A stretch of 64,000 nucleotides of DNA. It comes from Nitrospirota bacterium. GTDB taxonomy: Bacteria; Nitrospirota; UBA9217. The notes beneath the pieces are model-generated. The model was not told the DNA's origin and ran no database searches. It worked only from the letters and a program-made list of their open reading frames with translations. Where the stretch lies: positions 512,001 through 576,000 of the forward strand of contig CAVTRN010000002.1 in NCBI GenBank assembly GCA_963737155.1. The letters are read 5' to 3'. This document shows positions 1,549 to 53,771 of this stretch, in pieces. How positions within the stretch are numbered: the stretch's first letter is position 1; each line of letters starts with the position of its first letter. Made by a program: the position numbers and the translations under genes.

Positions 1549-1552
1549 TCCG

Positions 1553-2128: not shown

Positions 2129-2132
2129 CGGC

Positions 2133-4098: not shown

Positions 4099-4099
4099 C

Positions 4100-6896: not shown

Positions 6897-6907
6897 CAGG
6901 GGAGACC

Positions 6908-8531: not shown

Positions 8532-8745
8532 AATGGCTTCTTGTTGTGAAAGCATTGAAAAAAATGAAGACCGAGAGCATGTGGAATACCGCAGTACGCA
8601 ATTCAGGAGTCTATCTGTAATAGCTGTGGATTTCAATGGCGAAGGGAGGTAACAGGTTCAGGAAATGGTAGACAGGGCTGGTCGAGCCGGATGTAACCCG
8701 GCATCGGTTCAATAAAATGGGAATTTATTTCACTATAAATTAGCA

Positions 8746-9672: not shown

Positions 9673-9763
9673 GAGTCTCGACGGCGCTGAAGGCAGGCAC
9701 CCTAACGGGCAGCCATGAATGGGAGCACCTGCCTTCAGCAGACGTCCAAGGGCCGGGGAGAAT

Positions 9764-26370: not shown

Positions 26371-26746
26371 CATCATAGTGTTTTTAGTCTGAACTATCAC
26401 TTGGTTCTAGTGGTTGCATATCGCAGAGGTGCTTACGGAACCCGTACTTCGCCGGTGTTTGGAAATAGCAGGAGATATCGCCACGGATTTCAAGGCAAAA
26501 ATCGTGGAAGCAAACGGTGAGCCTGACCATATACATATCCTTTTGTCCGCTCCGCCGGAATTCAATTTGTGCCGTCTTATCAATTCCCTGAAAACCGTTA
26601 CATCCCGTTTGCTCAAAAAAGAATTTCCCGGCATCAAAGAAAAATTGTGGAAGGAAAAGTTTTGGGCAGCAAGCTACTTTGTTGTTACCGCTGGCGGAGC
26701 GCCGCTTGAAGTCATACAGAAATACCTTGAAGGGCAAGGAAATTAA
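26371..26746 (+). pseudogene. tnpA: IS200/IS605 Y1 transposase TnpA, frameshifted
   Basis: HSVFSLNYHLVLVVAYRR in one frame; VLTEPV..EPDHIHIL..FWAASYF..IQKYLEGQ in another; in-frame stop upstream at 26368. Confidence 0.85.
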
Positions 26747-28596
26747 TGGCCTACGGCAAAGGGGATAAAAATGTGTTCAGGCGCTCCATCCCCAGCGGGA
26801 AAACCACGCTGGACCCTGGCATGCTGACGGCCGGCAAGATGGCCGATCTCCTGATTATTCGCAGAAAGTTTCTTGCCGCTGCGAATTCGTTTGTGGATGC
26901 GGCGTTCCTTCCCGAACCTCTCGCAAGCACAAGAAACGGCGAGGACATCCATGCTGTTCTGACCGCTCTCCAGAAAAACATGGAGATTGGTTTCAACAAA
27001 GCATATGTGGAAAAAGCGCGTCTCGCCGTCCCTCCCGCCATCGCCCAGGTGGAACAAAAATACTTCAAGCGTTTTTACGGCAGGCTTCTAAACTGTGCCG
27101 CAAAAACAGAGGAAAAGGACCCCGCAAAAAGGCAGTACCTGAGCATTCCTGAAACGATCCAGGACAAGGTTGCGGCAAGTATCCTTGAATCTCTTGAACG
27201 TAAAATAAAAAATTACGGATACGGGAAGACCATCGACTTGGTCAGGCAGGTTGTTATACGGAAAATCAGCAAGGGGCTCACCGGAAAGGAAGCAATGATC
27301 GTCCGCGCCATTCACAGGGAGTGCCTCGCGAAATACGGCAAGCCCGTCTTCGGCAGTGACGACCGTTTTGCCTGCCAGATCAACCTGGATTACCGGGTCA
27401 TCCGGAACGACTCGGACCCTGTGGCCCGGATGGACAATATCGCCAGGCTTCTGGTAGACAGAACGAACCGCAAATATTATCATTTTCTCGAAATATCCAA
27501 CCCGGCTCCGCACGGGAAACCTGTTCGGATACCGGTGGTCATGTCCTCACGGACGCTCAAACGATTTGACAAGCTTTCGTCGGTATCCTCGCTTTCCCTG
27601 GTCATTAACCCTGATTCGGTCCTGGTCCGGGCAATCATTTCCAAGCCGGCCGGGAAAGCCGATATCGGCACTATTACGCATATCATCGGCCGGGACTTTG
27701 GCATGGTCAATACCGCCAGCCTTTCCGTGATAAGGATAGATGATCAGATCGATGAGAAGAAACTTAAGCAAATCAGCGAGTTTACCCGGGGAGAGGCTCT
27801 CGAGTATCTGAAAAATTACAGCCATCCCAATGACAACGTCGTGGAACGCATCCGCTTCAACGGCCGCGGTTTTCTCCGGAACATCAATGATTCCTGCAAA
27901 CGTATCGAAAAGCTGAAGTCGCAGATAGACACCGGCTACAATAATCTGAACAAGCTTAAAAACATCATTTGTGGATACCTGGGGCTGGACGAACGGGAAC
28001 AATTTGCCGAGGGACAGGATCTTGGTGACCCCTATATACGGCATATCCATAAAAAGTTCTTCCGGCTGCTTCATCACCTCGTCGAGATGAAGAAAAAACG
28101 CTTGTCCCTCTATAAGAAAATCGCGGGGATTAAGAAATCGTGGTTCGGGTACCTGTCCAACCAGGAAACAATTCTTGCAAGGAAATACCATGCGGCAATC
28201 GTACGGGAAGATCTTTCTATCCTTGCCAGGGAGAAAAACGATCCAGGCTACAAGGGCCGAACCTTCAACAAGATGATCAATAACGGTTCAAAAGGACAGT
28301 ATATACGAAGAGCATCGGATAAACTGCAATGGGATGGTATCCCGGAGATAGTTATCCCAAGCTACCACACATCCTCTTGCTGTACCGTCCATTCCCTGGT
28401 CGATGCCAGTATGCGCAATGGGGAAACATTTTTCTGTCCGCGCTGCGGCGCCAAGGAACACGCAGACTCGCACGCTGCGGATACAATTGGTAATTACATT
28501 TTGCTTCGTCCGAATATCGCGAAGCAAGTGACACTGCTTCTTCCAAGAGACAGACAATCCTCTGGGAATCTTCTTGTTGGAAGCCCCAATCAATAG
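26746..28596 (+). CDS. tnpB: large TnpB-like RuvC nuclease (616 aa)
   Basis: RuvC-I IIGRD317FG, RuvC-II IVRE488DL, zinc site CTVH..CPRC, RuvC-III HAD574SHAA; overlaps the tnpA stop. Confidence 0.85.
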   Translation: MAYGKGDKNVFRRSIPSGKTTLDPGMLTAGKMADLLIIRRKFLAAANSFVDAAFLPEPLASTRNGEDIHAVLTALQKNMEIGFNKAYVEKARLAVPPAIAQVEQKYFKRFYGRLLNCAAKTEEKDPAKRQYLSIPETIQDKVAASILESLERKIKNYGYGKTIDLVRQVVIRKISKGLTGKEAMIVRAIHRECLAKYGKPVFGSDDRFACQINLDYRVIRNDSDPVARMDNIARLLVDRTNRKYYHFLEISNPAPHGKPVRIPVVMSSRTLKRFDKLSSVSSLSLVINPDSVLVRAIISKPAGKADIGTITHIIGRDFGMVNTASLSVIRIDDQIDEKKLKQISEFTRGEALEYLKNYSHPNDNVVERIRFNGRGFLRNINDSCKRIEKLKSQIDTGYNNLNKLKNIICGYLGLDEREQFAEGQDLGDPYIRHIHKKFFRLLHHLVEMKKKRLSLYKKIAGIKKSWFGYLSNQETILARKYHAAIVREDLSILAREKNDPGYKGRTFNKMINNGSKGQYIRRASDKLQWDGIPEIVIPSYHTSSCCTVHSLVDASMRNGETFFCPRCGAKEHADSHAADTIGNYILLRPNIAKQVTLLLPRDRQSSGNLLVGSPNQ

Positions 28597-31344: not shown

Positions 31345-33033
31345 TCAGGGATTCCCGCCCTGATTCGCCCAAGTCCCGTTGTTTGCTGATCGGGATTGCT
31401 TCTGGCGCCTTTTCAGCAAGACTGCTGCTGGCAGGTGGCCCGGAGAATTGCGCTGTCGACGGGATGATGGCTTCTTCTGCATTTCAGCGCAGCCTGGGGA
31501 GTCCTGTAAGGACCGTCGTTGGTAGAGACTGTGATGATTTCCACAACCTCCCCGAGTCTTCATCTTGCTCCAAAACTTCCAGATGTGCTCCTCTCGATTC
31601 CTTGCAGGTAGAGGGGAGGCGGTTCTGCCTGGTATGGGAGACTCGGAATATCCTTGAACTCTTCTCGCGATAGCAAGCGCCGCTGCTTCATGCGGCGAGA
31701 TGCCATGAATAGACATATAATTGTTTCTGCCGATAACGGATGTGTAAGCAGGATTCACGGAGAGCACACCGACGCCTGCCTTAAATGCTCTGCGGTCAAG
31801 CATGTTTAAAAAGGTGGAATAGGCGAACCCGGACAGCATCCGCGCATACGTTACTCCCTGCTCCTTGAGAGATGCTTTCTTCTTTTCGAAGTCAAGAGTT
31901 TCATGAGCGACGGGTTTCCCGGTTTTAATTGACCGGTCGATAATGCCGACGCAGATATCACCGTAAGTTGCCTCGGTCTGTTCCGTGGTTCTGTCTTTTA
32001 TACATGCAGCATACGTTGTGTGCCAGACAAGATTGCCGAACCGGTCAGTCTCGGAAACAGCAATCTCTTTTTCGTTTACATCTACACCAATACATCCGAT
32101 TTCTTGCGGTTTCCCGGTAATTGTTTCTCTTTGGGGGATATCAACTGAAGAATACAGATACCAACCCTTCTCGCCACGGACAAACCGGTGGGTGATTGCC
32201 TGGCCGCGCAGGAGTGCCTGCTCAATATATTCCTGCCCGTAAGGATATGTTACGGTAGGCACCATGATGTGTTTACCGTATTTTTTGGCAAGATAGTTTG
32301 GGACCCGTATCCTGAGCGACCCGTCGATGCCAAGCGTGCAGGTCTGGTTGCCGGCCGTTTCATCCTTCGATCCCAGACAAAACGATGAAGAGCTTCGGGC
32401 AGCCTTCCAGGCAGACAGCCAGTTATTGTGGGATTTATAATCGTTTTCAGAAAGGTTAAACTGCTTGTGGAAAAGTTTCTTTGTCCCAAAGCAAATCCTG
32501 CTTCGGCCTTTGTCCAAATCGTATTTCAGCTTTTCCAGTTTCTGCACCGATGAATGGAGCGTCCGTTTTTTGTTGTGGACCGCAAAACGGAGAGACTTCA
32601 CGCTGGTCGTTTTCTCATATTCGGACAATTCCGTGTCTTTGCGTATGTCAATGATACTGTTCTCTCTGGTTTTAATCCATTTTCTCGCAGATTTTATTTT
32701 GTGCTCGAGCTTTTCAACCCGTAGTTTTAATACCTCAACCGCGGAGCTGATATTGCCGTCAAGATCGTAGCGGATAGCGTTAAACTGCCGGGCGGTGATA
32801 CCATACCTGACAAGATACTCATTTTTGAATGAAATGGGTTTGTTGCCGGAACGAACGCTGTCTTTAAAGAGAGAGCGTTTGATGTGCCCGTATGAGTCGC
32901 CGATATCGTCAAGAACATGATAAAGAGACTTCTTTGTGTCCAGGTAAGACATGTCAATCAGCAAAGTTTGAGCGGTAAAAGAAAGTGCTTCACTTTTGCC
33001 GCTCTTGCCCATTTTATCCTTATTACTTGCCAT
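31345..33033 (-). CDS. tnpB: IS607-associated TnpB-like protein (562 aa, no zinc finger)
   Basis: IGVDVN, VAHETLDF, VNPAYTS, PHEAAALAIARR. Confidence 0.85.
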   Translation of the reverse strand: MASNKDKMGKSGKSEALSFTAQTLLIDMSYLDTKKSLYHVLDDIGDSYGHIKRSLFKDSVRSGNKPISFKNEYLVRYGITARQFNAIRYDLDGNISSAVEVLKLRVEKLEHKIKSARKWIKTRENSIIDIRKDTELSEYEKTTSVKSLRFAVHNKKRTLHSSVQKLEKLKYDLDKGRSRICFGTKKLFHKQFNLSENDYKSHNNWLSAWKAARSSSSFCLGSKDETAGNQTCTLGIDGSLRIRVPNYLAKKYGKHIMVPTVTYPYGQEYIEQALLRGQAITHRFVRGEKGWYLYSSVDIPQRETITGKPQEIGCIGVDVNEKEIAVSETDRFGNLVWHTTYAACIKDRTTEQTEATYGDICVGIIDRSIKTGKPVAHETLDFEKKKASLKEQGVTYARMLSGFAYSTFLNMLDRRAFKAGVGVLSVNPAYTSVIGRNNYMSIHGISPHEAAALAIARRVQGYSESPIPGRTASPLPARNREEHIWKFWSKMKTRGGCGNHHSLYQRRSLQDSPGCAEMQKKPSSRRQRNSPGHLPAAVLLKRRQKQSRSANNGTWANQGGNP

Positions 33034-33589
33034 TTTCCATGGCCTCCAGAGCTTTTTTTGCTTTATTGGCCGCTGACCGGCGTCCGTAGAGCCTTGCGCA
33101 AAACGATGTCAATACTTCAATCATGTCCAGCACCAGATCGTCCTTACGTTCGGTCTGGTCTACAATAATAAGTTGACGACCTTGAGCTCGAAGTGCCGAT
33201 TCTACATACTCAGATCCAAACCGCATAAGCCGGTCACGATGCAAGGCGACAATAATACTGATGTTGGAGTCGGCAAGCAGCTTCATGAGTTTTGGCCTGT
33301 GCCCATTAAGACCAGATCCAACCTCAGACACCGCTTTTGAAACTGACAACCCTATGGAAGCGGCATATACGGAAAGCCGCCCGAGCTGCCCGTCCAGGTC
33401 TTTCTTTTGGTCATGACTGGATACCCGGGCATAAAGAGCAACAGAACCTTGGGCAGTTTTCTGCTCTTTTATAATGATGGTTCCGGTAGGCATCTGCTCA
33501 GCCTCAACCGGCAGCTTGCCAGCCTTCCACCATTTCCATGCCGCTTGATAGGTTATACCTTGTTGCTTTGCCCATACGCTTAGCTTCAT
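33023..33589 (-). CDS. tnpA: IS607 serine transposase TnpA
   Basis: N-terminal HTH, YARVSS, GSGLNG.RPKL, RDRLMRFG, ARLYGRRS. Confidence 0.95.
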   Translation of the reverse strand: MKLSVWAKQQGITYQAAWKWWKAGKLPVEAEQMPTGTIIIKEQKTAQGSVALYARVSSHDQKKDLDGQLGRLSVYAASIGLSVSKAVSEVGSGLNGHRPKLMKLLADSNISIIVALHRDRLMRFGSEYVESALRAQGRQLIIVDQTERKDDLVLDMIEVLTSFCARLYGRRSAANKAKKALEAMENGK

Positions 33590-34827: not shown

Positions 34828-35760
34828 ATGCCGAAAGCGAAAATTCTTTACATCGAAGACAGTGAGGCTCAAGGAACAATCACAAAGAAATTCTTAGAGG
34901 ACGGCGGGTATGAGGTGACCTGGGTCCACGAAGGGATGTCTGCTTTTCGAGTAGCTAAGACACAACCTGTCGATGTCATATTGCTCGACCGCGTTTTGCC
35001 GGATATGGACGGAAGCAGGGTGTGCGGTTGGCTCAAGCAAAATGAGCGTACCAGGGGAATTCCGATTATTATGCTCACGGCCATGAATACCACAGCTCAG
35101 AAAGTCCAGGGATTAGAGGCTGGCGCCGACGATTATCTTGCCAAACCGTATGAGGAAATAGAGTTGAGCGCCCGGGTGTATGCCGCATTGAGGACGAAGA
35201 ACCTCAGAGAGGAGCTGAGCCGGAAGAACGACGAATTGCAAATGATGATCAAGAAAGTCGAGGCCCTGTCTATTACAGACGCGCTGACCGGGCTTTTCAA
35301 CAGAAGACGGTTTGAGGAGGCGCTGGATTCGGAATTTAACAAAGCCAGCAGATACAAGTTACCCCTCAGTTGCATGATGGTGGACATTGACCACTTCAAG
35401 GACGTAAATGACACCTATGGCCATCCCGTTGGAGACGCGGTCATCAAAGACATTGCGTTGATCCTTAAGCAAAGCGTCAGAGGCGTAGATATGTTATCCC
35501 GCTGGGGCGGAGAGGAGTTTATCGTGCTTGCCCCGATGACGCCAAAAGAAGACGTGATGTATCTAGCGCGTAGAATCTTAAAAACAGTAGCCGATCACGT
35601 CTTTGCGGGTATGGGCGACAAGAGAGTGACCATTAGTATCGGAATCGCCGATCTATCCAGCCCCGGCAGCGACGCAGCATGTAGATTGGTCCAAGCGGCC
35701 GATAATGCCTTGTACGCGGCAAAAGATAAAGGGAGGAACAGAATTGAAACGGCGGGGTAA
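34828..35760 (+). CDS. response-regulator diguanylate cyclase (REC-GGDEF)
   Basis: REC domain; DALTGLFNRR, DIDHFK.VND.YGH..GD, RGVD I-site, GGEEF. Confidence 0.95.
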   Translation: MPKAKILYIEDSEAQGTITKKFLEDGGYEVTWVHEGMSAFRVAKTQPVDVILLDRVLPDMDGSRVCGWLKQNERTRGIPIIMLTAMNTTAQKVQGLEAGADDYLAKPYEEIELSARVYAALRTKNLREELSRKNDELQMMIKKVEALSITDALTGLFNRRRFEEALDSEFNKASRYKLPLSCMMVDIDHFKDVNDTYGHPVGDAVIKDIALILKQSVRGVDMLSRWGGEEFIVLAPMTPKEDVMYLARRILKTVADHVFAGMGDKRVTISIGIADLSSPGSDAACRLVQAADNALYAAKDKGRNRIETAG

Positions 35761-37689: not shown

Positions 37690-38411
37690 TGCCACCTCCC
37701 GAGTTTGTCTGCTATTCCTTATTATTATAACTCCCTTCGTCGTCGAGAGCATTCATCCCTGCGAGTATTCATGGCGGATTTTTCCAACCACTGACCTTAC
37801 CACTATGAATGTTTCATACAATTTTTACAGAGTTTTTAACGGGCTGCGGTGACGCAATAATCGATGGAGAGCGCAACATTTGTGAACTTAGCGGGTACAC
37901 TGCTTTGAGTTGAAATCTGGAATGTTGATACGCAACCTGTCCATCCGAGATTATTACTTTCTTGGGCGCCTTTTTAACGCCCATCCGAATTTATTCAAAA
38001 TATTTAGAGCCACATTTCCCTCGGTGTCGAGGCTGGAATGCAACGCATTGATATGACGGAGTAATTAAAAAATCTTTTGGGTCGTAACCGGTAAGCGGTT
38101 TGTTCGGCTGGATGAGTTTAAAAGAAGCAAGATAAATAGGTGTACTTGAATACTATTGTTTGCATGGAACGTACAAAGACGGTTATGCCCTTACTGGACT
38201 TGGGGTATCATGAAGAAAGAAGGGGTACTTGTTCTCTGTCAGGACGCCATGGTGCTCCTTGGCAGAAAACGAACCCCGTGCTTGGGATTTGTTTAGTACC
38301 CCATCGATGAGGAAATGTTAAAACCCGCACTCTTCATCCCGATCGTTAATGAAACCCCAATCCTCGTAACCGTTGAGGAACTTCCTCGTCGTTACCGCTG
38401 GAAGCCCTAAA

Positions 38412-38714
38412 TTAAAAGCCGGAAGCCTTTGAAAAAACGGTGGCCTGGTCATTCAGGAAATAAATATCAGGCTTGTCGATGACACCTGCTTTCTCCATAG
38501 TCTCCCTTAACTCCGCAGATTCAGAAAACGCCTTTGCACGGCCGATGTCTTTGGCCTCAAATAGAAGAATCACCTCATTTGTATCGTTTGCGCTGCGGAA
38601 AAGATGCTTCTCGGTAAGACCCGCCTCGATCCGCTTTGGAAGATGGGCATCGTAAGCTCGCTTCCATACAGAATAATCCCTGACTTTATGTCGAACAAGC
38701 ACATATGTAAGCAT
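38412..38714 (-). CDS. small dimeric alpha-beta barrel (cyclase/ABM-like) protein
   Basis: VRHKV.DY..WK..YD..R..AG..D.NEV..AF..S.EL...M..AGV...P; RBS GGAGG. Confidence 0.75.
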   Translation of the reverse strand: MLTYVLVRHKVRDYSVWKRAYDAHLPKRIEAGLTEKHLFRSANDTNEVILLFEAKDIGRAKAFSESAELRETMEKAGVIDKPDIYFLNDQATVFSKASGF

Positions 38715-39116
38715 TGATAACCTCCAATACTGCCGTTTTTTTGCCTTCTTCTGATTCAGTCCTTAAAAGACAACTGCCTCAACTAGCATTTCATCAATCG
38801 TAATTATATGCCTACTATAAAAATACCGCATATCTATGCGCTGTCAATACCACTTAAGTTTTGAAAAACATTTACATTAGGTCCGACATTCGAACCACTA
38901 CATAGTCTCATTCGGTTTTAGGAAAAACATAAAGCACCTTATATATGGGTCGGGCATGAGGTTAGACCTCCCCATTAAAATTCTGTGAGTGGCATCGGTA
39001 TAACTCATGTGTTTGAATAATGCGACAGTTCTCATTCCGAAAGGGAGGAGAAACGGGGAACGCAAACCATACCTTTGTGAGATACAGGAGATGTCAACTC
39101 GACTAAATACATTAGA

Positions 39117-40319
39117 TTACTGCAACGTGAAGTAGAACGTCGCGCCCTTCCCCACTTCAGCTTCAGCCCAGATACTACCACCGTGTCGGTGAATGATACG
39201 TTGCACGGTGGCCAGTCCGATACCTAGACCCGGAAAATCAGCGGTCTTATGAAGTCGCTGAAACGCATTGAATAATTTATTCGCGTATGCCATGTCGAAT
39301 CCAGCTCCGTTATCTCGGACAAAATATACGTCTCTGCCTCGCTTTTGCGTGACGCCGAATTCGATTCGCGCCGTTTCACACCTTCCTGTATACTTCCAGG
39401 CATTGCCAAGAAGGTTTTCAATCACGATATGCAGCATGGCGGAATCTCCATTGACGATTAGTCCGTCTGTGATGACGAGCTCCACATAACGGCCGGGTTG
39501 ACTTTTTCTGAGTTCTTCAGCCGTGGCCTGCGCTAACTGGCTCATATTCACCGGCATATAATTTATCTCGGTGCGTGTTAGCCTCGACACATTGAGCAGA
39601 GCGTCGATGAGCTGCCCCATCTTATTAGTGGCCTCACGTATGCGGTTGAGATAATCTTTACCATTGGCATCTAGCTTGTCTGCATATTCTTCAAGGATTG
39701 CGTGGCTAAAACCTCCAATGCTTCTGAGCGGAGCCCTCAAATCATGAGATACCGCATATGCAAAGGATTCCAGCTCTTTGTTCGTGATTTCCAGCTGCGC
39801 AGTACGATCAATGACGCGCTGTTCGAGTTCTTTGTTAAACTGTCGGATGCTTTCATCCGAAATTTTTCGTGAATTTGCCGCTCCGATAAGCCCGGCGATC
39901 GCTAAATAGAGATCAAGAGTATCCTTTGCCAGAGAGGTGGATGACCGGTGCCCCACCATCATCACAGCGACTGGCCGGTTTTCGTGAAGTATGGGCAAGA
40001 ATGCTGTAGCGATCGGATTCTTAGGTGAAAATGTAAAGAACGTGAGAAAACCGCTTTCAAAAACATCCCTCGCCGCTGCGATCACTTCCGGCTCAGATAT
40101 CTTTGTCGATGCGCCTCTTTCGGAAAATGCCCAGTGATTGATCTCAACGTCTCGATCATTACGGTAATTTACAAAGGTTACGACGTCGGCCCCAAATAGG
40201 TTAATGAGGACCCTTCCCGCCTCTTCCCAGATATCTTGTCCGGATGTCAGGCCGGCAAAATATTGCGCGGCATTTATAAACGCTTTTAACTGCTCTTTAT
40301 GAGAAAGTGATTTTATCAT
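39117..40319 (-). CDS. cytoplasmic histidine kinase with GAF-like N-terminal sensor
   Basis: FAYAVSHDLRAPL H-box, NLLGNAWKY, DNGAGF, GIGLA; no transmembrane segment evident. Confidence 0.93.
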   Translation of the reverse strand: MIKSLSHKEQLKAFINAAQYFAGLTSGQDIWEEAGRVLINLFGADVVTFVNYRNDRDVEINHWAFSERGASTKISEPEVIAAARDVFESGFLTFFTFSPKNPIATAFLPILHENRPVAVMMVGHRSSTSLAKDTLDLYLAIAGLIGAANSRKISDESIRQFNKELEQRVIDRTAQLEITNKELESFAYAVSHDLRAPLRSIGGFSHAILEEYADKLDANGKDYLNRIREATNKMGQLIDALLNVSRLTRTEINYMPVNMSQLAQATAEELRKSQPGRYVELVITDGLIVNGDSAMLHIVIENLLGNAWKYTGRCETARIEFGVTQKRGRDVYFVRDNGAGFDMAYANKLFNAFQRLHKTADFPGLGIGLATVQRIIHRHGGSIWAEAEVGKGATFYFTLQ

Positions 40320-40322
40320 GGT

Positions 40323-41924
40323 CTATGCCAAAGCAATCGGTTGGAGATAGAGATGCTCAAGGAAGAGGGTGTCGAAATCGGAACAGTTGGATAAACTTAC
40401 AATCACTGTACGACTCCTTAATTCCCGTAAACGGTCTTCTGCCTTGGGTAAGAGGAGTAAGGCCTCGCACCCGGAGAGTGACGTGTTCCCTGCGGTTACT
40501 ATCAGCTGTTCGGATATAGACGGCAGAAGCCCAATCTCCTGTGCATTGACAACATTGAGATATTGGCCGAAAACGCCACCAATGAATATGCGTCGTAACT
40601 CATGATATCCCATGCCCGCTTTCGTTAAGAGAACCTTGACACCTACTCCGATGGCGGCTTTGGCACGCTGGAACATGTCGATGTCTTTTTTGGTTAGAAC
40701 GATCTCCGGGTTGCCACGGCAAAGGGGAAAGCCGTATTCGGGAACGGACGGTGCAAATTGACCTTTATTGTTCAAGGTCCTGTTCCTGACGAGGCAGGCA
40801 AGCAGGTCAACTAAGCCGGAACCGCACAGACCTCGAGATTCAGCGCCGCCAATGACTTCGAATGCGAGTTCTTCTGGTGCATCCGAAACATTAACCCGGC
40901 AGATTGCACCCGGGTCTGCAGGTATCCCACAGCTTATGCCGCACCCCTCGAAAGCGGGACCGCCGGCAGCAGATGTCGCCCAAAGATTGTTCCCATCCCA
41001 TAGGGCCATTTCCGAATTGGTACCGAAATCAACTAAAAGGGTTCCAGGCTCACCTTCCATCAGTCGAGTTGATACGATGCCGGATAGAAGGTCGGAACCG
41101 ACAAAGCCCGCCAGAGGCGGAATGACCTCGATAGCCGTTTCGGGTTTAATACCCCAACTTACGCCCCAGGAGGCCATATCCGCAGGGAGGCAGTCAATAG
41201 ATTCGGTCCAATAGCGTGGATCGAGCAGATTGAGATAGTTTTTCCCCGTCAAGAGAGCAATCATCGCAGTATTACCCACTAGGACAATACGCGCCACTTG
41301 ACGCAGGTCAATTCCTTCTCTATAACTGATATCATTTAACCCATCACCTATTGCTTGAATAACCTGGCGGCTCAGCTTTTCAGCCTGATCGATGGATTTT
41401 GCTGCAATCAAGCGTGTCAGGACATCGGACCCCGATGATGCTTGAGGATTCGGACCGCGGCGTCCCGACAAGCGGCGGCCAGTGACAAGATCCAATAACG
41501 TAATTGATATGTGGGTAGTTCCGAGATCAACAGCTACTCCGAGGGAGTGTCTGAACTGCGAATAGGGCGCCCGTGGCTTGCTTGGGGGAGATGCTGTGCC
41601 CGTTCCTTCGCTAAGGTAACGCCAGACGGATGGGGGCGCCGGGCTGAGAATCTCAATCTGAAGATCGTGAATAGCTTTAACTTGGCAGGCAAGCCGCACC
41701 CCCTGAGAAAGTAACACGGTGCCGAGGCTGGCCAGTTCATTCAGGGAAGGTTCGTCAACATGTCCGGCTGCGATTCTGATGCGGCACAGGCCGCAGGCTC
41801 CCGTGCCGTTACATCCGGCACGGACCCGAATGTCAGCTTCATCGAGGACATCACGGACAGAACGACCGGACACAAACGTTATGTGCCGATCTTTATCTGA
41901 TAGTTTTACGGTTAGAATCGGCAC
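40323..41924 (-). CDS. corrinoid reductive activator (RACo/RamA-like ASKHA ATPase with 2Fe-2S domain)
   Basis: CNGTGACGLC..RLAC, VDLGTT, GFVGSD, DFGTNSE, AGGPAFEG, GLCGSG. Confidence 0.93.
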   Translation of the reverse strand: MPILTVKLSDKDRHITFVSGRSVRDVLDEADIRVRAGCNGTGACGLCRIRIAAGHVDEPSLNELASLGTVLLSQGVRLACQVKAIHDLQIEILSPAPPSVWRYLSEGTGTASPPSKPRAPYSQFRHSLGVAVDLGTTHISITLLDLVTGRRLSGRRGPNPQASSGSDVLTRLIAAKSIDQAEKLSRQVIQAIGDGLNDISYREGIDLRQVARIVLVGNTAMIALLTGKNYLNLLDPRYWTESIDCLPADMASWGVSWGIKPETAIEVIPPLAGFVGSDLLSGIVSTRLMEGEPGTLLVDFGTNSEMALWDGNNLWATSAAGGPAFEGCGISCGIPADPGAICRVNVSDAPEELAFEVIGGAESRGLCGSGLVDLLACLVRNRTLNNKGQFAPSVPEYGFPLCRGNPEIVLTKKDIDMFQRAKAAIGVGVKVLLTKAGMGYHELRRIFIGGVFGQYLNVVNAQEIGLLPSISEQLIVTAGNTSLSGCEALLLLPKAEDRLRELRSRTVIVSLSNCSDFDTLFLEHLYLQPIALA

Positions 41925-41928
41925 TAAA

Positions 41929-42942
41929 TTACCTCTTGGCGTGTGAGGCTGAGACCATCGCGCTTACGTTCTCAGGTTTGGATTCCGGCGGGATCTCACA
42001 ACCGGAAGAGAGAATAAAGCCGCCGCGTGTACTGAATAGTTCTAGCAATCTGGTCGATTCGTCAGCAATCTCGTGAGGCATCGCTTCGACAAAGGATAGT
42101 GATTTGATGTTGCCGTCGAGGCAGGTCCGCGGCAGAATTTGCTGAGCACTCAGCGGATCGATGCAATAATCGAAATTGGCGATTTCCACTCCGGCTTCAG
42201 GGTAATAAGGACAGATCGTGCCAGCCGGACCCGCAATGTGAATCCAGTTGGCGAGCGATCCCGCTGACTTGAATGCAGCAAATATTTTTTTGAGGCGGGG
42301 AAGTTCGAACTCGCGGAAAAACTGGGGGGGCACTACGGCTGGCGAGGCAGAAGGGTCGAATACCAATGGTACATGAGCCCCTGCTTCGATCTGCGTCAGG
42401 CCAAAAGTGATTGCTACTTCTCCGGCGAAGTCAAGAAATCGGCCAAACAAATCGGGATCGTCTACAGCAAGGAAGAGAGTCTTTTCCGGCCCCATCAGCT
42501 GCATTGCCAACGTCATCGGTCCTAACACACAGCCGACAATCAGGACCTCGTTTCCAAGTTTACTCCGCATAATCCGTGCTGCCTTGAGCATTTCCGTCAT
42601 ACGCCCACTCCGTTTGGGGTCCGGTATGGCCAGTTTACCCACTTCTTTGGCATTCTCAATGGCATATCGCTCGACACAAGGGTACATATCGTCGCGGTAG
42701 ATTAAGCGAGAACCTATTGCTTCGGTCTCCACGCTGGTATCCATGAGTGTAAAGACAGCATCGTAGCCATAGTGATCCAGTGCCCTCAACTGACAGCTCG
42801 CTAACAGCTCGCCGTCTCTGACATACTGTCTCAGAGGTACATTAGTAAGAACGGCGGCATGACCAAAAACTTGGGCAATCACCGGGACGCGGTCGGGTTT
42901 TCCAAAGCTCATTGCGGTCTGAATCCGTTCGATGCTGTTCAT
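41929..42942 (-). CDS. MtaA/CmuA-like methyltransferase (uroporphyrinogen decarboxylase fold)
   Basis: PDRVPV, EAIGS, GPMTLA, FDPSAS, FREFELP, HIAG, GNI, FILSSGCEIP. Confidence 0.9.
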   Translation of the reverse strand: MNSIERIQTAMSFGKPDRVPVIAQVFGHAAVLTNVPLRQYVRDGELLASCQLRALDHYGYDAVFTLMDTSVETEAIGSRLIYRDDMYPCVERYAIENAKEVGKLAIPDPKRSGRMTEMLKAARIMRSKLGNEVLIVGCVLGPMTLAMQLMGPEKTLFLAVDDPDLFGRFLDFAGEVAITFGLTQIEAGAHVPLVFDPSASPAVVPPQFFREFELPRLKKIFAAFKSAGSLANWIHIAGPAGTICPYYPEAGVEIANFDYCIDPLSAQQILPRTCLDGNIKSLSFVEAMPHEIADESTRLLELFSTRGGFILSSGCEIPPESKPENVSAMVSASHAKR

Positions 42943-43577
42943 CGAGTTTCCTTGGGTTGATGTTCAAGGTAGTGTAGGCCGTCAAAGACGGAATCCGCAA
43001 CAAAATCCACATTGAGAGCATTCGCGGAGGCCTGCTTCAATGCCGCGCCTCCCGCCAGCACCGTCACCTTTGCCAGTCCACGCGTTCGCGCTAGGGGAAT
43101 AACCTGCCTCACTAATGGTATGACGCTTGTTATGAGGCCGCTTATACAAATTACCGCTGCTTCTTCCCGTACGGCTGCTTCAACCAGCTTCTCGACCGGA
43201 CAATCCTTGCCGCAATCAACAACCCGGTATCCCTTGGCGATCATAATCGTCTTAACGATATTTTTCCCCAAGTCATGAACATCGCCCTCAAGGCTTGCCA
43301 ATACGATGGTTTCTCGTGTGGCTGATGGAGGTCCATCAGGATAAAGTGTCTTGATAACCCCCATCGCTGCCCGGCCGACAAGCATTATTTCAAGCAGGTT
43401 GAACTGCTCCACGGTGCATTTTGCATCAAGCCGCACCATGACAGACTCAATACCGTCGATAATGATCTGCTCATTGCTAATGCCAACATTTCGCAGTCTG
43501 GTTACCTCGGCTATAGCCCCTGTCTGATCCCCCTCCATCAAAGCATTAATAAGTTGGTCCATAGATTGTTTCTTCAT
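42939..43577 (-). CDS. corrinoid (B12-binding) protein, MtaC-like
   Basis: Cap domain plus EGDVHDLGKNIV (DxHxxG), SGL, GGA. Confidence 0.93.
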   Translation of the reverse strand: MKKQSMDQLINALMEGDQTGAIAEVTRLRNVGISNEQIIIDGIESVMVRLDAKCTVEQFNLLEIMLVGRAAMGVIKTLYPDGPPSATRETIVLASLEGDVHDLGKNIVKTIMIAKGYRVVDCGKDCPVEKLVEAAVREEAAVICISGLITSVIPLVRQVIPLARTRGLAKVTVLAGGAALKQASANALNVDFVADSVFDGLHYLEHQPKETR

Positions 43578-43830
43578 AAGACATACCCTCTACCGTTTAC
43601 AGGATGAGAAATCACTGCCTTGAATTCATATAACAATTTAATGGCGGACGCATCATGATATCGCTCTGTAATTTCAATGTCAATGCAAAATCCGGCGGGG
43701 GATTAGGATATGAAATTTTCAGGGCATCTTTATAGTTCAGGGACTCGATCAAACTAGCAGGTATTACTTTCTTACTAGCATTTCCCCACTCAAGATGTGT
43801 ATTAAAAACATCTACATTCAAAAATAGACT

Positions 43831-43859
43831 TTGACAGGGAAGAAATTAAGTGGTACTCA
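43831..43859 (+). promoter_or_regulatory. putative sigma70 promoter for the riboswitch leader
   Basis: TTGACA, 17-bp spacer, TG-extended TACTCA, about 20 nt before the aptamer. Confidence 0.5.
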
Positions 43860-43880
43860 TTAGCAAATAATCAAAGATAT

Positions 43881-43963
43881 TTCCCGACAAAGCTGACCTC
43901 TTCGCGAGAAGGGCGAAGAAAGCGGCGGGTCTTGAGATAAGATGGCCGAGCCGCCGAAGGAAA
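43881..43963 (+). ncRNA. cyclic di-GMP-I (GEMM-I) riboswitch aptamer
   Basis: CGACAAA-G-CU..CUCUUC-GCGA-GAAGGG..AG-AAAGC..GGGUCU..AGAUGGCCGAGCCGCCGA fits the GEMM-I layout (GNRA-capped P2, AAAG junction, P3). Confidence 0.82.
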
Positions 43964-43989
43964 AACCTTAGGCGAGCTCGGCTTTTTTT
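43945..43989 (+). terminator. intrinsic terminator overlapping the aptamer 3' strand
   Basis: GCCGAGCCGCC..AAGG-AAAA-CCTT..GGCGAGCTCGGC followed by T7. Confidence 0.85.
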
Positions 43990-44271
43990 CTGCATCCCGG
44001 ATGCCGTCCGCTATATCTGGGGAAAAACGGGGTATTTGGCATGTATTCGATAATTACAATCTGGCAATCTGACAAACGGCACACGGGACATACAGCGCGA
44101 AGTAGAGCCTGGACAGCTACCTAAAGACAGGCGGTCTTGAATTCGTCGCTCTAATTTGTTTAAATCCAAGCATCGAAAATCTAGCTCAATCGAGTATTAT
44201 GTGGGTGTGGAATAAAGCGCCGAATAAAATTAAAGACTGATAATGTCGGCGACAAATTGGAGGTGCGGCGC

Positions 44272-45903
44272 GTGGAACAGAAGACGGTCCTTGTCGTCGA
44301 AGACAGCATTGCCGATGCAGAGCTGGTTAGGCGCATGCTGATGGCATCCGATGGTGAATTTGCTGTAAGTAGCGCTGTTAGGCTGTCGACGGCGTCTGGC
44401 CTTCTCGAATCGAAGTCGTTCGACGCCGTAATCATCGATTTGAACCTCCCCGATAGCACGGGGCTTGACACCCTTCGAAAGATTCAGGAAAAAGCCTCGC
44501 ATTCCGCTATTGTCGTTTTGGCCAGTTATGCTGATGAAAATGCAGGTGTGGACGCTGTGGAAGTAGGTGCACAGGACTATCTCGTAAAGGACCATTTGAA
44601 GTCTGATGTTATTCACCGCGTCGTCCGGTATGCTATCGGTCGTAAACAGGTACAAGTACGTTTGCAGAAGTCTGAGGAATTGAGCGAGGCCCGCAACAGG
44701 ATAAACGATCTGATAAGTTCAACGCTGGACTTCGAGGAAATACTGAACCGTGTCATCGGAGAAGCGGCAAAATCCATCGGCGCTGAGGCCGCGTTGATTG
44801 GCCGATATGATGAAGGCGGATTTACTGTCAGATGCAATTATGGTCCGCTTGTCGGATTAAAGGACTTAGTTCTGCCGCAGGAAGAATTCAGAGCCTTTGC
44901 TACCCTGGAGAAGAATGGGATACCGATCATATCCGTTGACGCGCAGACGGACGAGCGCATCAACTCAGAAGTGGCGAAAAGGTATGGTGTCCACGCGGCT
45001 TTATTCTTCCCCCTGTTTGTGAATGGTTCGGTTACGGGGGCATTGGCTTGTTTTAATCTTTCGGTCCGTTTCTTCGACGACATCGAGGTTGATTCGGCTA
45101 GAAAAATATCGGCTTCTCTTTCCCTCGCCCTTGAAAACGCCCAACTCTACAAAGAATGCAGGGTCGCAGAAGATAATCTGAGGAAAAAGTCGATAGAACT
45201 CGAGAAGAAATCGAGTGAACTTGAGTTAAGCAACAGGGAACTCGAACAGTTTGCATCCGTTGCATCCCATGATCTACAGGAACCCCTGATTTCGTTCGCG
45301 AGCGAAATCAAACTGAGCCTGATACGGTTAAAAGGCAAGGCAGACGAGGAAGCGCTCCGGTACCTGTCCAATGCTTTGACTAATGCGGTAAACATGCAAA
45401 AAATGGTTCGGAACCTACTTGCATATTCACACGTTGGCAGGCATCCATCCTTTGAGAGTACGGACCTCGAAAAAGTTCTCGAGCTTGCCATCAACAATCT
45501 CAGATATTTTATTGAAGAATCAGGGGCTGTCGTTACTCATGACCCTCTCCCCCGGCTCTTTGTCGATCCTATCCTTGTTTCTCGGCTTTTTCAAAACCTC
45601 GTGGGCAATGCCATCAAGTACCGGTCTGGGAGGCCGCCGGAAGTCCATATCACAGTTGATTATCGAGACGGTGAACACATCTTTTGTGTTAAAGACAACG
45701 GAATGGGAATGCCGGTAGATTACGCAGACACGGTATTTCAGCTATTTAGGAGAATCCCCGGAGTAAATCGGACGTTAGGCAGCGGCATAGGGCTGGCCAC
45801 ATGCAAGAAGATCGTAGAACTGCACGGCGGCAGGATCTGGGTGGAGTCGGCAGAGGGAAAGGGGTCCAGCTTCTTCTTCGTACTTCCTGCAGCCATGAAA
45901 TAG
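44272..45903 (+). CDS. REC-GAF histidine kinase
   Basis: REC (VEDS, DLNLPD, DYLVK), GAF, ASHDLQEPL, NLVGNAIKY, DNGMG, GIGLA; GTG start with GGAGG. Confidence 0.93.
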   Translation: MEQKTVLVVEDSIADAELVRRMLMASDGEFAVSSAVRLSTASGLLESKSFDAVIIDLNLPDSTGLDTLRKIQEKASHSAIVVLASYADENAGVDAVEVGAQDYLVKDHLKSDVIHRVVRYAIGRKQVQVRLQKSEELSEARNRINDLISSTLDFEEILNRVIGEAAKSIGAEAALIGRYDEGGFTVRCNYGPLVGLKDLVLPQEEFRAFATLEKNGIPIISVDAQTDERINSEVAKRYGVHAALFFPLFVNGSVTGALACFNLSVRFFDDIEVDSARKISASLSLALENAQLYKECRVAEDNLRKKSIELEKKSSELELSNRELEQFASVASHDLQEPLISFASEIKLSLIRLKGKADEEALRYLSNALTNAVNMQKMVRNLLAYSHVGRHPSFESTDLEKVLELAINNLRYFIEESGAVVTHDPLPRLFVDPILVSRLFQNLVGNAIKYRSGRPPEVHITVDYRDGEHIFCVKDNGMGMPVDYADTVFQLFRRIPGVNRTLGSGIGLATCKKIVELHGGRIWVESAEGKGSSFFFVLPAAMK

Positions 45904-46307
45904 CTTGCCCAAGAAAAAATACAGTTTCGATCAACAAACAGCTTTTATGGATTGAAGCTATCCTTGCAGGTCAAATTGTATTTATTTTGTCAGTTTGAAA
46001 TCATCCGAAGCCTGCCTGCTCATAACTGGAACTGCTCGGAAGTGCGTCTGACTGCGTTCGTATAATCCATGGCAGACAAGCTTGTAAAATACCAGCGTAG
46101 CGTTACATGGAATCCTGTTGGAAATTTGGTTTTCCATTCTTTTCTACTAATACTCTTGGTCCTCCGCTTCCTTTTGGCACAGTGTAACAGATTGGTTATC
46201 TCTAGGTGGAGCAGATTATGGGAGGATATAATTCGGGGCAATTTATATGAATTTTCCATACTTACGAATTGCCCTAATCGGATCCGCCTTGATTTTACGA
46301 CGAATCG

Positions 46308-46832
46308 TTACGCATCTCTTATTTTTTGCACTGCCATGATCGTTTTCATGGTCTCACGCATGAACGCCGGAAGGTCCGACGGCTGGCGCGAGGTCACGAG
46401 ATTTCCATCCACGACCACCTCTTTGTCCTCGTAAATCGCGCCTGACTCTTTCAACTCTTCTGCGACGGTCCGGTAACAGGTGGCATGTTTGCCCTTTAGC
46501 AGCCCCGCGGTAATAAGTGTCTGCGGTCCATGGCAAATAGCGGCAATGGGCTTGCCCTTCAGGAAGAAGTCCCGTGCAATCTCCACCGCTCTCGGTTCTT
46601 TTCGCACCACCTCGGGCGCCTTACCGCCTGGCAGTACCAGGATGTCATAGTCGTCGGGCTTTACCTCTATCAAGGTTTTCGTCACATTGACTTCGTAACC
46701 GTGCTTTCCCTTGATCGTTTCCTTCTTCATGGACGCAATGTCCACCTCGAGCCCTTCTTCCAGTAGCCGATAATAGGGAACAAGAAGTTCTGAATCCTCA
46801 AACCTGTCTGCGCTGATCAATAGTGCCTTCAT
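46308..46832 (-). CDS. PfpI/DJ-1 family protein (class I glutamine amidotransferase-like)
   Basis: FEDSE, LPGG, AICHGP, VVVDGNLVTSRQP.DL. Confidence 0.93.
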   Translation of the reverse strand: MKALLISADRFEDSELLVPYYRLLEEGLEVDIASMKKETIKGKHGYEVNVTKTLIEVKPDDYDILVLPGGKAPEVVRKEPRAVEIARDFFLKGKPIAAICHGPQTLITAGLLKGKHATCYRTVAEELKESGAIYEDKEVVVDGNLVTSRQPSDLPAFMRETMKTIMAVQKIRDA

Positions 46833-47924: not shown

Positions 47925-49448
47925 CAGGTTATACTGTTTTTAGTTGAAATTGAAAAGAGTGGCTCCCCCGTGGCATAATCCACGGTAGAGAGAGAAAAAA
48001 GAAAGGAGCCACTCAATGAAGGATACCACAAGGAAGAGAAAAAAGGCAATACGAGGAATTGAAGAGGCATACGGAAGGCGGGAGATCATCGAACAGATGT
48101 ATTGTGTCTTCGCAAAAGGGAAACAGGGTTTTGATGAATGCATGAAGGAAATGGGCAGAATGATGGCAGAGACGATCATGTACATCGAGCGGGAGGAGAT
48201 TGCCGGCCCCGACTACCAGCCTAACAGTCCCGATCTGCGGAAGTGGGCTAGCCAGGGCGGTTCCGTCTATATCGGCGATCAGAAGATCCCGGTGACCCAC
48301 CCTCGGCTTCGAGGTCCGGCGGGTGAGATTGTACTGCAGAGCTATCAGAAGATGAAAAAACCGGAAGTCTTCGCAGAAGAATTGCTTGGAAAGGTGCTTC
48401 GGGGCATATCATGCCGGAAGTATGCGGAGACAGTTGTAGATACGGCACGAGCATTTGGAGTGTCCGCCAGCACGGTATCGAGCCATATCGTCGCGGCAAC
48501 AGCAAAACAGCTTCAGGAGTTTAAGGAACGGTCACTCACGTCATTCGTTCCCTTTGCGGTCTTTTTAGACACTGTTCACCGCGGCGGAGAGGCATTCATC
48601 GTGGCGCTGGGGCTTGATATTGCCGGAAAGAAGCAGACATTGGGGTTCTGGCAGGGGGCGACGGAGAACCATGAACTGTGTGAAGAGCTGTTTTCTGATA
48701 TAGAGCGGCGGGGTCTGATACTTTCACGACGAATCATCTGGGTTACCGATGGCGGCAAGGGCGTAATCAAGGCACTCCGGGATCGCTTCGGTAAGAAACT
48801 CATCCATCAGCGGTGCACGATCCACAAGGACCGGAATATACAGCATCATTTGCCGAAGAAATACCGGAAAGGCGCACACTGGAGGTTCCGGACAGCCCTG
48901 GAGCAGAATAATTACGCGGACGCTCGTCAGATGCTTCTGGACATGGAGAAATGGCTTCGGGGCATTAATGAGTCGGCGGCTGATTCGCTCATGGAAGCGA
49001 TAGAAGACATTCTCACCCTTCATCGATTGAAGGTCCCCGCTCTCTTGAGGAAGACGTTGCATTCTACCAATCCTATCGAGAGCATGTTTTCCACGGTGAG
49101 AAAAGCAGAAGGCAATATAAAGCGCTACCGCGACAGCAAGATGATGCAGCGCTGGCTCGCTTCTGTCCTCTTATATGCTGAACAAGGATTCAGAAAGATC
49201 AAGGGCCACGCCTTCATCGCGGACGTGATGAAACGGATCGAAGCGGAAGAATTAAATGACCTAACAGTCAAAGAGGCTGCGTAAAGGGGGATGGTTAGGT
49301 ATGGCTCGGCCTCAGAAAACTCACATATGGCGATCCTACGAATCCGATTTTATAAACAGCGATGATTTACACCGTTGAACCGATAAAAATACTTTAGCCG
49401 AAGGGAACGGGCCACTCAGATAATTTCAACTAAAAGCTTGACCTCGTC
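47925..49448 (+). mobile_element. IS256-family insertion sequence
   Basis: 27-bp imperfect TIR sharing TTTTAGTTGAAATT; 8-bp TSD TCGCGTTC at 47917-47924 and 49449-49456. Confidence 0.92.
48016..49284 (+). CDS. IS256 transposase
   Basis: FLDTV, VTDGGKG, QRCTIHK.RN, STNPIES. Confidence 0.95.
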   Translation: MKDTTRKRKKAIRGIEEAYGRREIIEQMYCVFAKGKQGFDECMKEMGRMMAETIMYIEREEIAGPDYQPNSPDLRKWASQGGSVYIGDQKIPVTHPRLRGPAGEIVLQSYQKMKKPEVFAEELLGKVLRGISCRKYAETVVDTARAFGVSASTVSSHIVAATAKQLQEFKERSLTSFVPFAVFLDTVHRGGEAFIVALGLDIAGKKQTLGFWQGATENHELCEELFSDIERRGLILSRRIIWVTDGGKGVIKALRDRFGKKLIHQRCTIHKDRNIQHHLPKKYRKGAHWRFRTALEQNNYADARQMLLDMEKWLRGINESAADSLMEAIEDILTLHRLKVPALLRKTLHSTNPIESMFSTVRKAEGNIKRYRDSKMMQRWLASVLLYAEQGFRKIKGHAFIADVMKRIEAEELNDLTVKEAA

Positions 49449-52136: not shown

Positions 52137-53771
52137 CCTAAAAAGAGCAGTTACCCTCAATCAGAGCCACTTATCCACACCATAACGGCAGAAGTTCAGG
52201 CGCCTGCAACGGTTTTCCACCCAGCAGTTTGAAAAATGCACGGCTCAAGATACGTCGCCACCGTTCACCTGGAGTCAACTGCTCCGCAGTTGTTTTCAGG
52301 ATGGCTAGAAAGCGGGATATCTCATCGAGAATGCGCTGAACTTTCCCAGAGCTTGCGTGCGCACTCGTGATGGTCATCATGGTCTGCCCTTGATGGCGTG
52401 TTTGTTTGCCAACCGCATGCAGAAGAAGTGGACGACTCGTAATTGCCTCCAAGTGTTTGTCCGGATGAGCAAGCCTCACGAAGAGCGACCACCAGTTGTA
52501 AACTAATGCTACGGTCCGCGCCATGAAGCCGCAGCGCTTAAGGTCCCGGGTCGTATATCCGCCCCACCCCCACTGATTCTTCAACTCGTCAAAAATATTC
52601 TCTGCATCCGCACGATCACGGTAGTGTTGGGCGATTGTGAGAATCTCGTCTTTGAGGGTGGTGGCTAGTACTGCATACTCATATCGCTTGGCAACTCCGG
52701 GCGCTTCCACAAACCCAAGTTCCATCTGATCCTTCTGCTGCAGGCTTATTGCTACGTCTCCCGTGAGCACTCGTCGAAGGATAATAACGCGACGAGATTT
52801 CTGCCATCCCATGAGTTGAAGGGATTCTTCCACACCCTCCCAGCCCTGTCCGGCATCTACCCAATCGTTACTATAGAATGCCTTCTCAATAAGCCTCCGC
52901 ACGTTCTTCGTGAGGCGTAGCTTCACGAGATAGGGCAATTCTTTTTCTTCTGCCTGACTCATGAAGCCGTCCGTGCCCCAGCCTGAATCCCCCCGGAAAA
53001 AGGCAGGCCAAAAGCGACGCGGGAGTCGTTCCAGAAGCTGCCATAACCCCGGGGTGCTGTAACACGTCGCTGTTTTGTTTCCGGCCTGCACCTCAACATC
53101 CAAAACAAGCCGGGTATTGGCCATCAGGTAACTGTGATAGGTGTGAGACGGCCTGCCGGGCTTATGCGGGTTGTAACCAATGACCGCGCCCTCTTGTTTT
53201 CCGTACAACGGTTTGACCGTCGTATCTCCGTCCATAATCCATGGCATGCACAGGAGGGATTCATAACATCGCCTCATGTGCTCAGTAAGCCATGAGATGC
53301 CGGCATGCTCATCCATCTGCTTAAATCCCCGCCGTACGGTGTCTTCGCTCACGACCTTCGTCATGCCGAGCAGTGCCGGGTTGACATTATCGCTTCGAAC
53401 GCTCGTCATGTGGGAATAACGATGGTGACCGGCTAGAACGGACAACAGGACCGTACCGAGAAGATCGCGTTTCTCGGGTGCGTTAGGACTCGTGTAGTGC
53501 AGTGGACAGTCTGCTACCCATGGTTCGTAGATTCCACCCGTCTTCAAAAAATCGATGAAGAACGCCAGCTGGCCCATTGGCGTAACGGCTGCTGTTGAAT
53601 CCCATTCAACATGCACTTTTCCTGCAAAGGTATCGACTGCAATTCTATCTGTTTTATCTGTAGGTGGAGATGAAATCGAGTCACCCATTGGGTGAGACCT
53701 CCTTGTTGAAAGAAGTATCATAGTATCCAATAGTTAACTCAGATTTGCAAGGCCCAACTGCCGTTTATAGG
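52137..53771 (-). mobile_element. IS1380-family insertion sequence
   Basis: TIR CCTAAAAAGAGCAGTT / AACTGCCGTTTATAGG; 5-bp TSD TTCAT (52132-52136, 53772-53776). Confidence 0.9.
52171..53688 (-). CDS. IS1380 transposase
   Basis: MDGDTTVKPLYG.QEGA..GYNP, RGDSG, YRDRADAENIFDELK. Confidence 0.93.
   Translation of the reverse strand: MGDSISSPPTDKTDRIAVDTFAGKVHVEWDSTAAVTPMGQLAFFIDFLKTGGIYEPWVADCPLHYTSPNAPEKRDLLGTVLLSVLAGHHRYSHMTSVRSDNVNPALLGMTKVVSEDTVRRGFKQMDEHAGISWLTEHMRRCYESLLCMPWIMDGDTTVKPLYGKQEGAVIGYNPHKPGRPSHTYHSYLMANTRLVLDVEVQAGNKTATCYSTPGLWQLLERLPRRFWPAFFRGDSGWGTDGFMSQAEEKELPYLVKLRLTKNVRRLIEKAFYSNDWVDAGQGWEGVEESLQLMGWQKSRRVIILRRVLTGDVAISLQQKDQMELGFVEAPGVAKRYEYAVLATTLKDEILTIAQHYRDRADAENIFDELKNQWGWGGYTTRDLKRCGFMARTVALVYNWWSLFVRLAHPDKHLEAITSRPLLLHAVGKQTRHQGQTMMTITSAHASSGKVQRILDEISRFLAILKTTAEQLTPGERWRRILSRAFFKLLGGKPLQAPELLPLWCG

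Follow-up and report, generated by a model that had tools for sequence, protein, structure and literature searches.

Why should a corrinoid protein, a methyltransferase-like protein and a reductive activator be encoded in one operon with a soluble histidine kinase? This question is raised by four minus-strand genes in the 4.8-Mb, two-contig genome of a Nitrospirota bacterium, within the 64,000-nucleotide stretch of DNA that was analyzed (the window, G000:C2:512001-576000). The genes encode a 212-residue corrinoid protein (CP; 42939-43577) composed of a cap and a Rossmann B12-binding domain, a 337-residue UroD-fold, MtaA/CmuA-like protein (MT2; 41929-42942), a 533-residue RACo-type reductive activator with a GTG start codon (40323-41924), and a 400-residue kinase (39117-40319). 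The CP and MT2 genes share an ATGA overlap (42939-42942), and gaps of 4 and 3 bp separate MT2 from RACo and RACo from the kinase gene; the open reading frames confirmed this layout in every detail given by the first-pass annotation. The gene identities that it had assigned also held, as Pfam detected the B12-binding domain with DxHxxG, URO-D, Fer2 plus RACo, and HisKA plus HATPase_c domains, and a GAF fold was recovered by modeling. That annotation had suggested a cobalamin-based signal input in place of a metabolic pathway. We consider it very probable that the first three genes (the trio) and the N-terminal domain of the kinase together constitute a dedicated signaling input, and we propose, from the sequences, that the kinase may read the state of the corrinoid cobalt.

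The input domain and its linkage to the corrinoid genes

Pfam assigned the C-terminal part of the kinase, comprising a signaling helix, HisKA with the phosphorylatable histidine (His192) and HATPase_c (39117-39869), to the class I histidine kinases. No transmembrane segment was detected in the protein (best 19-residue hydropathy, 1.36), consistent with its assignment as soluble, and no cognate response regulator is present in the operon. Residues 1 to 150 (39870-40319), which form a module-specific domain found in a single copy in the genome, reach no Pfam cut-off, the nearest match on the N-terminus being GAF_3 at only 20.7 bits (cut-off 27). An AlphaFold model of residues 1 to 172, with a predicted local distance difference test (pLDDT) score of 90.7, displayed a GAF fold followed by a long helix, and a Foldseek search with the input-domain model matched GAF domains, the best being 4g3k at a query TM-score (TMq) of 0.64. 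Because a GAF fold is modeled and yet the scores lie under the Pfam GAF cut-offs, the model indicates that the input domain is a distinct GAF subfamily. The domain contains conserved polar residues (Q19, Y20, D29, W31 and H124), with His124 present in 84% of 195 aligned rows, and no conserved cysteine.

The input-domain family comprises 300 representatives at 50% identity; among the best 150 of these, the domain begins at most 25 residues from the N-terminus in 147. A Pfam scan of outputs in 87 of the 150, with the longest sequences and short fragments left out, revealed 58 kinase, 7 GGDEF, 5 HD-GYP and 2 SpoIIE outputs, plus 16 proteins with none or truncated, one HD-GYP representative that also has GGDEF being counted in both classes. 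The outputs behind the input domain are thus interchangeable, and the domain recurs behind the trio fused to varied outputs, as had been asked of it at the outset. Versions of 224 residues (L068:10615-11289; P0039 and P0042) contain just the input domain plus a coiled coil, with no catalytic output.

The linkage was counted in both directions. An alignment search with MT2 yielded 336 relatives in species genomes, and in the best 80 of these loci the CP gene lies upstream in 80/80 and the input domain downstream in 75/80, with four loci stopping at a contig edge and one lacking the domain. Where the downstream DNA extends for 2.2 kb or more, 71/72 loci carry the input domain; the sole trio locus without it (L093) has a broken RACo gene. 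Starting from the domain only, in the best 80 of 110 metagenome loci, a trio gene stands in front at all 73 loci whose upstream DNA reaches 300 bp or more, and CP and MT2 are both present at all 35 loci with at least 3.6 kb, 32 of which also include RACo; the loci are partly related, and none of these linkage counts represents independent events. Trio and input domain are mutually tied. A trio usually found without the sensor domain, or accompanied by a substrate-specific methyltransferase (MT1) gene, had been named as the pattern that would speak against a sensor; the domain is nearly always there, and the trio has neither an MT1 nor an acceptor methyltransferase as a recurrent neighbor.

According to record titles, the bacterial carriers among the best 80 loci belong to Nitrospirota, deltaproteobacterial groups, Chloroflexota, Acidobacteriota, Bacillota, a Rhodospirillales bin, Endomicrobiales, Chitinispirillaceae and Fermentibacteria, and the archaeal carriers to Methanocellaceae, Methanomassiliicoccales and Promethearchaeota; most are anaerobes of sediment, peat and soil. 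A 301-genome sample of another phylum contained 2 carriers only, too few for counting. Because the same gene order recurs in dozens of genomes from several phyla, the arrangement is not due to chance. The recurrent neighbors at the 80 loci are signaling genes only.

Fusions were also found. Full CP-MT2 fusions account for 8 of 10 long matches, with P0320 and P0321 excluded as likely frameshift or deletion artifacts, and direct fusion of the ferredoxin domain of RACo to the input domain occurs at 2/80 genome loci, 3/80 metagenome loci and in 4 genomes of the same genus as the source genome (the sets overlap). In an archaeal bin (L070:2489-4993), RACo, input domain and kinase form one 834-residue frame that is either a real fusion or a frameshift. 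A predicted complex of CP, MT2 and the input domain, computed with alignments and with cobamide not included, scored 0.00, which we read neither for nor against contact.

Altered motifs in the corrinoid protein and the UroD-fold protein

The CP matched the Pfam B12-binding family (E 6e-19) and retains the D99-x-H101-x-x-G104, SxL and GG motifs for cobamide binding, with D99, H101, G104, S146, L148, G176 and G177 near-invariant; we infer that cobamide is bound via His101. Among 75 aligned CPs, C54, N60, D99, H101 and C126 are conserved in all and C122 in 73. Cys54 and Asn60 align with two cap Phe positions of 7XCN, 1Y80 and 4JGI. The cap domain lies over the upper corrin face (PMC10293825). The CP model resembles CarH-type domains (8jbs, TMq 0.79), the protein scores under the cut-offs of TIGR02370 (94.9 versus 215.3 bits) and of the CarH model NF052513 (22.8 versus 400 bits), and the CarH signature GxxW and EH are absent from its cap sequence. 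No solved relative was found when the cap region was searched alone. By motif register, not by tool alignment, Cys54 would correspond to CarH Trp131 (PMC11796333, PMC4557120), the neighbor of the His132 that binds cobalt at the upper axial site in light-state CarH (PMC4557120).

MT2 belongs to Pfam URO-D (PF01208, E 4e-66, 223.8 bits), scores under the curated TIGR01463 cut-off (160.3 versus 235.4 bits) and has MtaA 4AY7 as its best solved relative (E 2e-24). In MtaA/CmuA proteins, H-x-C ... C is the zinc-ligand motif. In MT2 the HIC of 4AY7 aligns with H235-I-A237, so that one zinc-motif Cys is lost; Ala replaces it in 78/79 MT2s, C315 is retained in 78/79, and the window protein also retains D258 and E316. 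Transfer of a methyl group by MT2 to or from the corrinoid is putative. The cap and zinc motifs set the module apart from catabolic-type paralogues in the same genome.

The activator contains Pfam Fer2, RACo middle and RACo C-terminal domains and matches 3ZYY (E 1e-67). It is RACo-type by its N-terminal [2Fe-2S] domain, in which the ligands C38, C44, C47 and C80 are intact, as are the ASKHA ATPase motifs, while the RACo linker is absent and the scores lie under the AcsV and RamA cut-offs. A degenerate RACo ATPase was considered and rejected because the ATPase motifs are intact. RACo proteins carry out the ATP-driven reduction of corrinoid cobalt. The operon provides a reset for Co(II) and no methyl-acceptor enzyme; a catabolic partner is lacking.

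Two further corrinoid clusters in the genome, G000:C2:690868-705853 and G000:C1:905392-914484, each encode two UroD-fold proteins and a RACo, resemble mec-type cassettes and have a catabolic look. The first also includes presumed PAS kinase, regulator, CobW-like, CbbQ/NorQ-like and DUF1638-like genes, and the second an MtrH-family gene.

A nos-linked sister clade and the nature of the stimulus

The only clue to the stimulus comes from a sister clade of weaker MT2 matches in the same phylum, in which the cap cysteine motif is kept and His235 and Cys126 are lost, and whose modules continue with a kinase that has a cysteine-rich GAF domain and, in most cases, with a regulator of the NtrC type. 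In a FastTree phylogeny of CPs, this clade groups with the window clade against the catabolic-type paralogues of the source genome (support 0.999). nosZ, for N2O reductase, was present in 4/60 genomes, exactly the four carriers of the sister module. A fresh sample of 301 genomes of the class contained nosZ in 31 and the sister module in 12, of which 9/12 have nosZ, and in 8/12 it immediately follows the module in the same orientation; the window-type module occurred in 9 genomes of that sample, none with nosZ. In one family (54 genomes), nosZ is present in exactly the 3 module carriers. Of the other sister loci, one is cut off by the contig end behind the first electron-transfer genes, and one has no neighbor of this kind. 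The linked NosZ proteins are of both twin-arginine translocation (TAT) and Sec types. No strict sigma-54 consensus was found upstream of the sister-clade nos operons by simple patterns, so direct control of nos by the NtrC-type regulator is not supported.

Two side observations concern this clade. At one locus (L225:4244-8917, G819) the sister module precedes, instead of nos, an operon for a type II dimethyl sulfoxide (DMSO)-family molybdoenzyme that is nitrate/chlorate-reductase-like, and the sister GAF domain (L110-L113, L225-L231, L238) has a conserved cysteine pattern that is a candidate metal or Fe-S site.

Co(I) is the cobalamin state that reacts with N2O. Inactivation of cobalamin by N2O is documented (10.1101/2024.02.09.579283). 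Of the two stimuli first proposed, the Co(I)/Co(II) option thus gains support from the nos-linked clade, whereas the methyl-donor option is left without direct support. Our best reading, to which we give somewhat less than an even chance, is a sentinel of cobalt oxidation read through protein contact. The RACo-type activator would charge the CP cobalt to Co(I) at the expense of ATP. Co(I) would then be discharged by a small oxidant, with N-oxides such as N2O, NO and nitrite, or O2, as the likeliest candidates, which would gain access via the barrel of the UroD-fold protein, by analogy with CdmB. Cys54, standing in place of the cap Phe over the upper corrin face, would bind or gate the oxidized cobalt, locking the cap in the manner of His132 in the light state of CarH. 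The GAF domain would contact the corrinoid complex and read its changed shape, and this contact would switch autophosphorylation of the kinase at His192, with the response regulator supplied in trans. A broader version, which we regard as rather doubtful, would have a disarmed corrinoid methyltransferase kit act as a Co(I) trap for N2O and related oxidants, with a cap cysteine lock and a dedicated GAF reader, as a widespread undescribed input class; the sister clade would then sense N2O directly, as its receptor, and drive nos expression, and the window clade would warn strict anaerobes of B12-enzyme poisoning.

Several findings weigh against oxidation of cobalt as the signal. An N2O-reductase link was rejected for the window clade itself, as nosZ is found in 0/56 of its carriers, source genome included. 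The N-oxide clue comes from proteins with a different, cysteine-rich GAF domain that scores only 7 to 15 bits on the window input-domain profile, and with neither His235 nor Cys126; RACo is absent from the operon in 7/12 sister loci, and the module is absent from 22 of the 31 genomes of the class that have nosZ. Among the 80 MT2 loci, RACo is missing from 4 complete and 2 fused ones, which makes CP, MT2 and the input domain the core of the module and RACo an accessory; ordinary catabolic systems also carry RACo, which therefore has no discriminating value. Finally, MT2 keeps H235, D258, C315 and E316 and shows 51 to 76% identity across phyla, and this conservation fits a working catalytic site.

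A close rival, which we hold to be possible if on balance unlikely, retains the same dedicated sensor and changes the stimulus to a methyl or alkyl donor, such as a methyl halide or methyl thioether: the UroD-fold protein would act as MT1 and methylate Co(I), and the GAF domain would read methyl-Co(III) or a methyl group on a thiol, for example that of Cys54. All of the linkage evidence applies equally to this explanation. UroD-fold proteins can themselves be MT1, as reported for MtpA (10.1101/548461) and for CdmB, a zinc-free chloromethane MT1 with a hydrophobic channel (PMC13222342), the Cys-to-Ala change in the zinc motif fits a loss of chemistry with a thiol acceptor (coenzyme M), and the barrel is highly conserved. 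On the other side stand an operon without a demethylating or acceptor enzyme, the lack of recurrent methyl-compound catabolic genes near the module (80 loci), and the fact that operons for N-oxide respiration are the sole targets recognized in any relative.

It is quite unlikely that the trio converts the signal enzymatically, by making or destroying a small molecule for the GAF pocket, without lasting protein contact. GAF domains usually bind small ligands, the conserved residues of the input domain are polar, and the proteins stay separate at most loci; the ferredoxin-sensor fusions and the translational coupling, in contrast, suggest proximity, and substrate-supply or transport genes do not recur at the 80 loci.

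We give as little credence to an ordinary catabolic methyltransferase of the MtpA/MtpC or MtsA/B type, which would pass methyl groups to AcsE/MtrH-type enzymes in trans and be regulated by a conventional kinase. The absence of MT1 and one-carbon genes from the window, noted at first inspection, was borne out. The genome-wide search suggested by the first-pass annotation found neither MttB nor MtaB families; acsB, an AcsE-like pterin-binding gene and an MtrH-family gene are nevertheless present elsewhere, so that a Wood-Ljungdahl pathway, and thus a metabolic methyl sink, exists in trans. The argument from missing MT1 also proved weak, because UroD-fold proteins can fill that role and MtaB/MttB need not be present (10.1101/548461, PMC13222342). 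Two-protein systems are described (10.1101/548461), kinases adjoin mec and mts genes (10.1101/2021.08.30.458270, 10.1101/2021.03.04.434021), and acetyl-CoA synthase was found in 28/50 carriers, many of them incomplete metagenome-assembled genomes. It was not found in the other 22/50, three Chloroploca genomes among them. Catabolism is disfavored mostly because the outputs are interchangeable, GGDEF, HD-GYP and SpoIIE domains not directly regulating an operon, and because the acceptor enzyme is missing: no second methyltransferase, donor- or acceptor-specific, recurs in the 80 loci, acceptor methyltransferases never adjoin the module, a scan of 44 neighbor proteins revealed none of the pterin-binding, MtrH, MttB or MtaB kinds, and no PocR or MtrH-type genes were seen at module loci. 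The trio, moreover, practically never occurs without the input domain, and its cap and zinc motifs are unlike those of the catabolic-type paralogues.

A sensor of light or cobamide supply, with alkyl-cobalt photolysis or apo versus holo CP as the signal, would suit the phototrophic Chloroflexota (Chloroploca, Oscillochloris) that carry the module with GGDEF outputs, the cap without a shielding Phe and the CarH-like model, and is very improbable given the missing CarH signature (PMC11796333) and low CarH score, the predominance of sediment, peat and soil anaerobes, and cobamide transport or synthesis genes that, two related loci aside, do not recur at the 80 loci.

Genomic setting and relation to known systems

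A sigma-70-like promoter candidate (TTGACA-17-TATCAT, minus strand, 43655-43683; 11/12 consensus match) precedes the first gene by 78 bp and ranks first among 7 sites found in the region, where 6.6 sites at 9/12 or better are expected by chance. Rfam gave no match at gathering score in 38000-46500, and hence no cobalamin riboswitch. Flanking the operon are two candidate phosphorelay partners, a divergent REC-GAF-HisKA-HATPase kinase (44257-45903, plus strand) and a REC-GGDEF gene (34828-35760, plus strand). Elsewhere in the window, 1-12078 holds a phosphonate C-P lyase and ABC-transporter cluster, in which PhnM was confirmed via NCBIfam and the other genes are presumed members by their sequences. 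TnpB-like long reading frames with weak NF040570 matches encode 616 residues (26746-28596, plus strand) and 562 residues (31345-33589, minus strand), the latter sitting behind what we take to be a resolvase-like gene, as in IS607. One transposase is present in two copies (14349-15704 and 58232-59586, the second frameshifted), and others lie at 19468-21225, 48016-49284 and 52171-53730.

To our knowledge, B12 signaling comprises light sensing and riboswitches. The module is likely an undescribed sensor that turns the cobalt state of B12 into a cellular signal, and it possibly reports oxidizing gases such as N2O; a literature search without most subscription journals and bioRxiv supplements found no description of it. 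What is added here are the counts of linkage in both directions, the cysteine in the cap and the division into nos-linked and nos-free clades. If the proposal is true, the coupling of cobalt redox or alkylation state to outputs through kinases, cyclic di-GMP or phosphatases would represent a chemistry new to sensing, and one widespread among the bacterial and archaeal inhabitants of anoxic soil, peat and sediment. Perception of N2O or of corrinoid-enzyme inactivation would become testable with four soluble proteins, and one of the carriers, Acetobacterium tundrae (L082), whose version has a GGDEF output, can be grown in culture; "MtaA/corrinoid" annotations in genome bins need not imply methylotrophy.

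A precedent for a catabolic-metalloenzyme paralogue turned input of a soluble kinase is the regulatory hydrogenase HoxBC with its kinase HoxJ, which differ in being unrelated proteins with nickel-iron chemistry and H2 as stimulus. MtaABC/RamA, MtsAB, MtpA/MtpC and CdmBCA share with the module a DxHxxG corrinoid protein, a UroD-fold methyltransferase and an ASKHA activator; the module differs from them in having no second methyltransferase and an obligate sensor gene, in the changes of H-x-C to H-x-A and of cap Phe to Cys, and in scoring under all curated cut-offs. The mec dichloromethane cassette likewise clusters a corrinoid protein, MtaA/CmuA-like proteins, an activator and a histidine kinase (10.1101/2021.08.30.458270); compared by description only, it is catabolic and has four methyltransferases, including the MtrH-type MecF, as well as a kinase that contains a PocR domain and is paired with a DNA-binding regulator. 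CarH, AerR and photocobilin photoreceptors also use a cap and Rossmann B12 domain in signaling, and cap residue His132 can take the upper axial site (PMC4557120), but they need no methyltransferase or activator, carry GxxW/EH and respond to light on adenosylcobalamin. The Methanosarcina kinases MsmS, RdmS and MA4377 are also genetically tied to corrinoid-methyltransferase genes; they regulate mts transcription via their own sensor domains, the corrinoid protein being target and not input (10.1101/2021.03.04.434021). By the features tested, the module appears to be a member of none of these systems, nor of the CarH photoreceptors, and by analogy may work as an enzyme-derived sensor built from Mta-, Mtp-, Cdm- and mec-type parts.

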